Source: Escherichia coli
GTDB lineage: Bacteria; Pseudomonadota; Gammaproteobacteria; Enterobacterales; Enterobacteriaceae
Assembly (NCBI RefSeq): GCF_003991155.1
Contig: NZ_CP031293.1
Reading direction: 5' to 3' (one strand)
DNA length: 64,000 bases
In this document: positions 39,278 through 39,796 of the stretch, piece by piece
Position numbering within the stretch: position 1 is the stretch's first letter
Layout of the letters: every line of letters begins with the position of its first letter
Notes under the pieces: model-generated
The model's input: the letters and a program-made list of their open reading frames with translations, nothing else
Database searches by the model: none
Told to the model about the DNA's origin: nothing
Translations under genes and position numbers: made by a program

Positions 39278-39796
39278 TTCTTTGACCGATTGTTGTTCAC
39301 AGCGAAACAGTAACGCGCATATCGCATTGTTTATTGTTTTTTCTAACATCTAATGCCGGGTTTCACAATGTTGTCATGACGAATGTGGCGATTTCTCAGC
39401 AGGAAAAGGGCGGAATAGCTTTCTGAGAAAGGTGAATCCCCCTAAACAGAGCGTATTTTTCAGCGATTCCCTTTAAAGTGAATAGAGGACGTGTTGGCTA
39501 TTTGTGCTTATTTTTGTCTCATTGCCGTTTGTTATTTTTGCTTGTGGTCGCGGAGTTTCATTTTTAATTGCATGCGTACTAACCACCAATATAAGGAAAT
39601 CCTCAAAATTGTTTTAAATAGTGCCCTCGACATGTAATTTCAGGCGTTTAGCTGTAACTATTTATATCGGTAACTATTTTCTACGCGTCATCTCTGTAGA
39701 ATGGCCACCGCCAAATGGCGAATTCTTATTTTTTCTCGCGGGTAATACCCTTCCACTACTTAAGTCTTTTTAACGTATTCAGGTGGAGATTCAGTT

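Follow-up and report, generated by a model that had tools for sequence, protein, structure and literature searches.

Why should the divergently transcribed genes rcdB (yhjC) and yhjB of the Escherichia coli core genome be separated by 519 bp in which genome annotation places nothing at all? We addressed this question in a stretch of 64,000 nucleotides of an E. coli chromosome, referred to here as the window. The gap is flanked by rcdB/yhjC on the minus strand (ATG at 39277, 299 aa) and yhjB on the plus strand (ATG at 39797), with the same boundaries in the RefSeq records of strain E2865 and of K-12 MG1655 (NC_000913.3), and its sequence is 100% identical to that of E2865 and 98.7% identical to that of K-12. 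A longer, 323-aa version of yhjC starting from the ATG at 39349 was considered and rejected; that stretch contains a 1-nt indel between genera, and the 299-aa start is therefore the correct one.

An earlier note, made from the letters of this DNA alone, had described a 519-bp, AT-rich divergent spacer with T-runs, among the longest non-coding stretches of its surroundings, and in these respects it was accurate. The boundaries are exact; GC content is 39.5% vs 51% for the window, with only 5% of the 519-bp windows being equally AT-rich; there are seven T-runs of at least 5 and no A-runs; and of the 38 or so gaps counted between genes over 50 kb of the window, only three are longer, namely hdeD-gadE (798 bp) and a pair in the ars region (579 and 538 bp). 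The further statement that the region has no assigned features is true of the annotation (the PGAP RefSeq records and NC_000913.3 show none within the gap) but not of the literature, which reports binding of PhoB, H-NS, RcdB and YqhC/RNAP, as well as an in vitro transcript. The features discussed below are collected in Table 1.

Table 1. Positions, in window coordinates, of the features of the rcdB-yhjB intergenic region and the start of yhjB
Feature	Position	Strand	Remarks
rcdB (yhjC)-yhjB divergent intergenic region	39278..39796		519 bp, 39.5% GC
rcdB-proximal control region	39278..39395		homologous to the 118-119-bp yhjC-SDR divergent spacer
RcdB (YhjC) binding site CTAACATCTAATGCCGG, presumed LysR-type operator	39343..39359		published ChIP-exo
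Pho box TTTCACAATGTTGTCATG	39361..39378	+	two direct 7-bp repeats 11 bp apart; PhoB-bound
YqhC ChIP-exo peak flagged "bound by RNAP"	39369..39407		U00096.2 3670307-3670345 (PMC8464067 supplement)
Probable scar of the SDR gene, unconstrained fast-turnover filler	39396..39490		47-57% identity between Escherichia lineages
Marbox-like island GCACAAATAGCCAAC	39493..39507	-	plus-strand reading TATTTGTGC; in alignment with the marbox of Salmonella
Variable distal part of the yhjB upstream region	39511..39585		28-55% identity between Escherichia lineages
Palindrome TAAGGAAATCCTCA, candidate dimeric-regulator operator	39592..39605		consensus TAAGGAwATCCTTA
Invariant TGTAAT	39633..39638	+	invariant alignment columns
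Direct repeat TAGCTGTAACTATTT / TATCGGTAACTATTT	39649..39679	+	second copy in Escherichia only
-10-like hexamer TAGAAT	39697..39702	+	TAAAAT in other genera
Imperfect palindrome of the earlier note AGAATGGCCACCGCCAAATGGCGAATTCT	39698..39726		unique in the window
Invariant TTCTTATTTT	39723..39732	+	
GGGTAATACCCTTCCAC block	39740..39756	+	AWTACYCTTC (39744-39753) conserved; UUCCAC (39751-39756) can pair with the ribosome-binding site
Shine-Dalgarno region of yhjB GGTGGAGA	39782..39789	+	seen in the sequence; conserved
First ~16 codons of yhjB	39797..39846	+	synonymous sites frozen

The gap is a stable component of the species. It was found in 5423 of the 5426 complete E. coli genomes, on the chromosome every time and in single copy. 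Identity of at least 99% over the whole gap is limited to 1714 of the 5423 genomes; over a conserved core at the yhjB side (39690-39850), this level is reached in 5341 of 5414, and no paralogous copy of the core was detected in the 5,426 genomes, where it is likewise single-copy.

The organization of the locus in related bacteria points to the origin of the gap. The comparison covered five other Escherichia lineages and E. fergusonii, three Salmonella, Intestinirhabdus alba, six Citrobacter, Kluyvera ascorbata, a genome labelled Klebsiella oxytoca, Pseudocitrobacter, and 31 metagenome loci. A gene for a 252-aa short-chain dehydrogenase (SDR) separates yhjC from yhjB in Citrobacter, Kluyvera, Klebsiella, and Pseudocitrobacter. 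This gene is intact in C. sedlakii, C. amalonaticus, C. freundii, two more Citrobacter, K. ascorbata, the K. oxytoca-labelled genome, and Pseudocitrobacter; in all eight, it is divergent from yhjC over a constant spacer of 118-119 bp, and yhjB follows about 340-470 bp past it. In C. rodentium, the SDR gene is a broken pseudogene (tblastn, 1e-25 to 7e-29; nhmmer, 1.4e-51 and 2.8e-32). With C. rodentium as the positive control (1.4e-51), tblastn and nhmmer searches at E <= 10 found no SDR remnant in Escherichia, Salmonella, I. alba, or E. fergusonii. Against NCBIfam, YhjB, YhjC, and the SDR match generic families only, all below the curated cut-offs.

Because the SDR gene is present in the outgroup genera as well as in Citrobacter, ancestral presence followed by loss is the parsimonious scenario. 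As E. coli has kept no recognizable SDR sequence, it is from synteny and parsimony that we infer this loss. The gap is thus probably made of two ordinary control regions that became joined when the gene between them disappeared. The earlier note missed this probable loss of a gene that the relatives retain, which would be the main reason for the length of the gap.

Alignment of the loci divides the gap into three zones. The rcdB-proximal zone aligns with the yhjC-SDR spacer of the relatives, and the similarity ends at the position of the SDR ATG. The counterpart of the yhjB-proximal zone (39586-39796) is the SDR-yhjB spacer in its proximal part. The middle, that is, 39396-39490 and 39511-39585, is not alignable between Escherichia lineages. 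Identity between these lineages is 84-90% in the rcdB-proximal zone, 88-93% in the yhjB-proximal zone, and 28-57% in the middle, to be compared with 72-81% for third codon positions in the genes on either side. Both outer zones exceed this value and are therefore under constraint. The middle turns over faster than synonymous sites do, presumably by indels or replacement, and plain neutrality is not the full explanation for this rate.

Low GC, reported H-NS binding, failure of the middle to align between Escherichia lineages, and an IS5-family insertion at this place in one E. coli strain could all be taken as signs that the AT-rich middle was acquired horizontally, derives from a mobile element, or is a decayed but recognizable SDR pseudogene, and that it is silenced by H-NS. 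We regard such an origin as extremely unlikely given that the gap is single-copy and chromosomal, lacks repeats of the mobile-element type, matches none of 50,697 phage records, matches plasmid records only where these are mislabelled chromosomes, and shows no SDR similarity at E <= 10.

Between the two variable segments lies a short island that recalls a known regulatory site. In Salmonella, ChIP has shown that SoxS binds a mar/sox/rob box (marbox) in the yhjB-yhjC gap (PMC10268841). This marbox, GCACATTTTGTTAAA, is located on the minus strand at positions 2171-2185 of our Salmonella locus L016, and the Citrobacter equivalent of the island sits just past the SDR stop codon. The E. coli island resembles the Salmonella site in its corresponding distal place upstream of yhjB and in keeping GCAC...AAC. 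Compared with AYnGCACnnWnnRYYAAAY, GCACAAATAGCCAAC retains GCAC, W, and RYY, with AAC in place of AAA, so that the E. coli match to the consensus is imperfect; moreover, binding has been demonstrated for Salmonella only. Searches with a profile built on the SDR 3' flank give E of about 1e-3 to 1e-4 for Salmonella and I. alba, about 0.1 for other Escherichia clades, and only 8.8 for K-12, which makes the homology statistically weak in E. coli itself. From sequence similarity of this kind, we would only tentatively regard the E. coli island as the counterpart of the SoxS-bound marbox.

The rcdB-proximal zone contains published protein-binding sites. Published coordinates were converted to window positions (w) as w = 3711691 - g, where g is the position in NC_000913.3; U00096.2 = g - 1977, which was checked with a cspA site, and the Maciag numbering = U00096.2 - 393, which was checked with the gadA-ccp gap. 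The conserved blocks of the alignment of this zone are TATTGTTGTT, GAAACAGT, TTTATTG-TTTTTCTAnCAyCTAAT, and TTCnCAAT. The most conserved of them coincides with the RcdB binding site, listed as YhjC ChIP-exo site 4 at U00096.2 3670355-3670371 (PMC8464067 supplement). The earlier suggestion that the gap could hold operator sites is thus borne out by this site on a cross-genus block, by the adjacent PhoB box, and by the SoxS site in the Salmonella counterpart. No clear LysR T-N11-A motif was identified in the rcdB-proximal region; the dyads that occur are loose, such as TTATT-N15-AATAA in Citrobacter, which is degenerate in E. coli. ChIP for three proteins had been proposed as a check: in published data, the region is reported as H-NS-bound (PMC10294691 Table 1), YhjC has its site in the gap, and ChIP-exo of YhjB found no site in the gap, its own upstream region (PMC8464067). 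The YqhC peak, which is flagged for RNAP, likely marks the location of the rcdB promoter complex and is our candidate for it.

A LysR-type regulator with a divergently transcribed target gene is a classic arrangement, exemplified by ilvY-ilvC and cynR-cynTSX. The short, fixed 118-119-bp spacer to a divergent enzyme gene in the eight relatives conforms to this arrangement, as does occupancy by RcdB of a site in its own upstream region. E. coli departs from it in that the SDR is absent and the divergent gene is now yhjB, 519 bp away. With the target gene gone, only the regulator side of the LysR arrangement survives in E. coli. RcdB would have lost its neighbouring target and presumably still regulates its own gene at this site; no target has been reported for it other than the unlinked csgD promoter.

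The Pho box next to the RcdB site belongs with the inert PhoB sites that have been described in H-NS-bound DNA (Fitzgerald et al. 2023; PMC10294691). The same site is tabulated in that study, with the ChIP-seq peak centred on NC_000913.3:3672318, which corresponds to window position 39373, and the Pho box is a good one; RNA levels of yhjB/yhjC are unchanged, being 252/397 in the wild type vs 218/408 in the phoB deletion strain, a difference that is not significant, so that the published RNA levels show no PhoB-dependent transcription of the adjacent genes. It differs from the inert sites in being intergenic rather than intragenic and in having its first half-site inside a block that is conserved for another reason: this half-site is conserved across genera, whereas the second is specific to Escherichia.

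Sequence conservation is marked at the opposite end of the gap as well. The earlier note had proposed to examine conservation across genera; the yhjB-proximal blocks are invariant in eight genera, and the yhjC-proximal blocks are conserved. In the 12-taxon alignment, 55% of the columns in 39690-39755 are invariant. The near-invariant set consists of GTARAAT, GCCAAA, TTCTTATTTT, AWTACYCTTC, the ribosome-binding site, and ATGTTTGACAGGCAGTCRATATTTATTCAYGGAATGAA (39809-39846); with degenerate positions as written, this holds for 15 genomes of eight genera and for all but one metagenome variant. The constraint does not stop at the start codon. Third positions of yhjB are invariant among 12 taxa in 70% of codons 1-10, 40% of codons 11-20, and 30% of codons 21-40, compared with about 0-20% per ten-codon block past codon 40 and 14% for the whole gene; ATGTTTGACAGGCAGTCAAT, TTTATTCA, and GGAATGAA are invariant runs in the early codons of these taxa. 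When 15 taxa are considered, two early-codon positions vary, A/G in GTCAAT and T/C in TTCATGG.

Within this zone, the TAGAAT/TAAAAT hexamer is the only well-conserved -10-like hexamer upstream of yhjB. The heptamer that contains it, GTARAAT (39696-39702), is found without variation in 40 of the 41 distinct upstream sequences, which represent eight genera, the exception being the metagenome locus L029, in which the block is deleted. In L029, about 100 nt are absent, which brings the invariant TGTAAT right next to the AATACCCTT block, on its upstream side; this locus does without the TAGAAT-TTCTTATTTT module, which is therefore dispensable in at least one lineage. No conserved -35 element accompanies TAGAAT, and a simple sigma-70 scan missed the hexamer; the single site that the scan did find in the gap, on the minus strand at 39617-39588, is no more than expected by chance. 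Judged by its conservation, TAGAAT is the best candidate for the yhjB core promoter and would specify a leader of about 88 nt.

Two palindromes occur in the same zone. The first, TAAGGAAATCCTCA, is conserved in Escherichia, Salmonella, Citrobacter, and the metagenome locus L029, and is a candidate operator for a dimeric regulator. It may resemble boxes of the LuxR/RcsB type; comparison of the palindromes by hand with the NarL, RcsB, EvgA, lux-box, and UvrY/GacA consensuses gave partial matches only and no assignment. The second is the imperfect palindrome of the earlier note, which is indeed present and unique in the window but lies at 39698-39726, 7 bp to the left of the reported 39705-39733. 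Its symmetric parts are limited to the 5-bp outer arms AGAAT/ATTCT and to GCCA/TGGC. It overlaps TAGAAT and TTCTTATTTT, and each arm is conserved but the symmetry is not.

Transcription toward yhjB has been reported: in vitro, with purified polymerase, the probe set covering 39350-39796 gave a signal in this direction, with a 1.58-fold preference for the sigma-S holoenzyme (PMC3141248), and in Salmonella, indole induces yhjB 7-20-fold (PMC3405474). Together with constraint that extends from about -100 into some 16 codons, the in vitro transcript makes the leader of yhjB suggested by the earlier note plausible.

The same transcript, in a long region without an annotated gene, might instead come from an independent sRNA with its own promoter and terminator, which the earlier note had also suggested. 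This interpretation fails on several counts and seems exceedingly improbable. In Rfam searches at permissive thresholds, the best match is CrcZ, with E = 2.1 and 11.6 bits vs a gathering score of 95; neither strand contains a terminator-like site; the one promoter-like site is at chance level; and no consensus structure emerged from 27 diverse sequences. The only part of the gap that is free of control elements of the flanking genes is the middle, the fastest-evolving part, with a rate above that of synonymous sites, and the conserved part runs without a break into the start codon of yhjB.

Constraint on the leader and on synonymous sites of the first ~16 codons raises the possibility that the segment of about 39696-39850 acts mainly as RNA, as a cis-regulatory leader for translation control or attenuation. 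Such a role would be compatible with two joined control regions as the origin of the gap. For close relatives, RNAalifold proposed that GUAGAAUGG pairs with UUAUUUUAC in an outer stem and CGCC with GGCG in an inner one, together with a GGG/CCC hairpin and, over the ribosome-binding site, a helix of UUCCAC with GUGGAG. In 11-12 close taxa, the proposed helices are 92-97% pairable vs 43-68% with the partners slid, but there is almost no compensatory change. In 27 diverse sequences, 85.5% of the cells of the specified helices are paired vs 83.7 +/- 0.5% in shuffles (0 of 500 reach the observed value), and there are 11 double-change cells vs 4.1 expected; this shuffle control does not amount to a probability, and structureless related sequences can exceed it.

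Other measures argue against a conserved fold. For the same 27 sequences, RNAalifold finds no consensus structure (2 pairs, -0.06 kcal/mol), and the fold of the E. coli leader is not more stable than the folds of its shuffled versions (z = -0.79). Of the 27 sequences, 13 break one pair of the inner CGCC/GGCG stem and 15 break one pair of the anti-ribosome-binding-site helix. The outer stem tolerates most changes trivially, because a purine run faces a U run. Invariance is equally high in loops, spacers, and stems, and there is neither an Rfam match nor a terminator. The helix between UUCCAC and 39783-39788 is paired in 80-92% of cells, with statistical support that is not decisive. The hairpins look good in the 11-12 close taxa, and the consensus is gone once Kluyvera, Klebsiella, Pseudocitrobacter, and the 31 metagenome loci are added.

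The leader resembles those that sequester ribosome-binding sites, such as RNA thermometers and translational attenuators, in having a conserved pyrimidine box that can pair and constrained early codons, and differs from them in having no consensus fold, no decisive covariation, and no Rfam family. Conserved RNA structure in the yhjB core is thus not shown by these comparisons, and we consider an RNA-based function of the leader rather unlikely. A sequence-specific recognition site, in RNA or in DNA, is possible in the core. One specific form of it, in which the ~155 nt of 39696-39850 are an undescribed post-transcriptional element of yhjB, conserved in sequence and not in structure in at least eight enterobacterial genera and read by a trans-acting sRNA or an RNA-binding protein, appears doubtful to us; if it were true, the factor that reads this segment would set the level of YhjB, an orphan response regulator of the LuxR family.

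The earlier note had seen no recognizable ORF in the gap. Strictly, ORFs of 20-50 aa do exist, but none of them behaves as coding. The one that deserves discussion begins at the conserved ATG at 39715 (33 aa in E. coli) and could be a small protein or an upstream ORF regulating yhjB by coupling; its frame is open in most species, and its stop codon overlaps the yhjB start as TAATG in Salmonella and C. freundii. The distance from this ATG to that of yhjB is 77, 80, 81, or 82 nt depending on the taxon, because of which the product would be a 26-aa upstream ORF, an in-frame N-terminal extension, or an out-of-frame 33-mer in different species. In three Citrobacter species, the ATG is replaced by AAG or AGG, no ribosome-binding site precedes it, and substitutions in the ORF are not concentrated at third positions. 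With both frame and start codon inconsistent, we rejected it as a gene, and regulation of yhjB by such coupling is highly unlikely.

Joining of two control regions around a lost gene accommodates these observations as follows. In the ancestor, yhjC would have been divergent from the SDR gene over 118-119 bp, with yhjB located after the SDR gene, the coding sequence of which was later deleted in Escherichia, Salmonella, and Intestinirhabdus. About 118 bp beside rcdB would have been kept, comprising the LysR-type operator of RcdB, the rcdB promoter, and a PhoB site without transcriptional effect. Next to it would lie some 100-190 bp of unconstrained AT-rich filler with indel turnover, H-NS binding having been reported for the region as a whole. 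The control region of yhjB would then consist of a distal mar/sox/rob-type box, a palindromic operator, and the candidate -10-like TAGAAT, followed by a leader of about 90 nt and the first ~16 codons, which are both constrained at the nucleotide level; some factor presumably reads these conserved blocks.

The gap is a composite of ordinary regulatory parts, to which its evolutionary history adds a modest twist, and one of the longer unannotated gaps of the E. coli core genome is thereby explained without a new gene. Neither of the two points that follow, one on RcdB and the other on yhjB, alters general understanding. RcdB (YhjC) is recast as a LysR regulator bereft, in Escherichia and Salmonella, of its neighbouring dehydrogenase target, and the intact yhjC-SDR pair of Citrobacter or Kluyvera may offer a route to the RcdB inducer. 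For yhjB, the invariant blocks upstream and in the first codons, such as TAAGGAAATCCTCA, TGTAAT, TAGAAT, TTCTTATTTT, and AATACCCTTCC, are targets for mutagenesis.

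In the first ~16 codons of yhjB, the eighth of which is a rare AGG for arginine, synonymous sites are nearly invariant in the eight genera compared, unlike those in the remainder of the gene, where synonymous change is saturated. The region upstream of a yhjB homologue on a 1475-bp metagenome contig (L029) retains the TTAAGGAAATCCTTAA palindrome, TGTAAT and AATACCCTTCC, and is devoid of ~100 nt containing TAGAAT, GCCAAA and TTCTTATTTT; this contig represents a natural deletion variant of the yhjB leader/promoter module. Less than 80% of the yhjC-yhjB intergenic region was matched in ~40 genomes, including that of E. 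coli S1-CAM-01-A, in which an IS5-like insertion of the ISKpn26 family takes the place of most of this region along with the 5' end of yhjB. Three matches to the TAAGGAwATCCTTA palindrome were found in the window, compared with 0.46 expected by chance; a second near-match, with 2 mismatches, is located within yhjJ and is probably a coincidence.

Coordinates of features in the window and in yhjC/yhjB loci of other genomes or metagenome contigs (L-numbers, own coordinates)
Feature	Sequence	Coordinates	Strand
Palindrome near-match in yhjJ	Window	31017-31030	minus
Upstream yhjC/rcdB extension, 72 nt	Window	39278-39349	minus
First ~16 yhjB codons	Window	39797-39846	
yhjB-treF spacer, 50 bp	Window	40400-40449	
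yhjC reduced to a fragment, Escherichia sp. MOD1-EC7003	L004	2048-2212	
yhjC absent, E. fergusonii	L013	1924-2500	
Trans_reg_C gene and 31-aa ORF, C. freundii	L022	4848-5383	
IS5-like insertion, E. coli S1-CAM-01-A	L024	3577-4757	
yhjB upstream region, metagenome contig	L029	about 1090-1260	

Many E. coli records (proteins P0010-P0027) encode a 211-aa YhjB variant with ~99% identity but only ~83% coverage of the query, and one such variant was found on 221 contigs, suggesting that a sizeable E. coli subpopulation possesses a frameshifted or alternative YhjB terminus. Separately, a 241-bp contig (L012) of a Limosilactobacillus vaginalis assembly matches codons 76-155 of E. coli yhjB with 100% identity and is almost certainly E. 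coli contamination.

A second difference in gene content at the yhjC/yhjB locus lies downstream of yhjB. Only the short spacer listed in the table separates yhjB from treF in E. coli; between one and three additional genes, encoding phage-lysozyme-like, GNAT acetyltransferase and HEPN_STY4199-domain proteins, occupy this position in Salmonella, Citrobacter, Kluyvera, Klebsiella and Pseudocitrobacter (loci L015, L016, L018-L022, L025 and L026). On the other side of yhjB, between this gene and the short-chain dehydrogenase (SDR) gene, C. freundii contains an inserted gene for a 146-aa Trans_reg_C protein (OmpR-type DNA-binding domain) and a 31-aa ORF.

Upstream of the yhjC/rcdB start, the frame is open as far as an ATG at 39349, from which older annotations derive a 323-aa protein. 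Because the additional 72 nt hold a 1-nt indel among genera, the true start is the one at 39277, yielding 299 aa. The gene itself has been wholly lost from E. fergusonii, where yhjD now faces yhjB, and is reduced to a 55-codon fragment in another Escherichia lineage, which shows that some lineages can dispense with this LysR gene.
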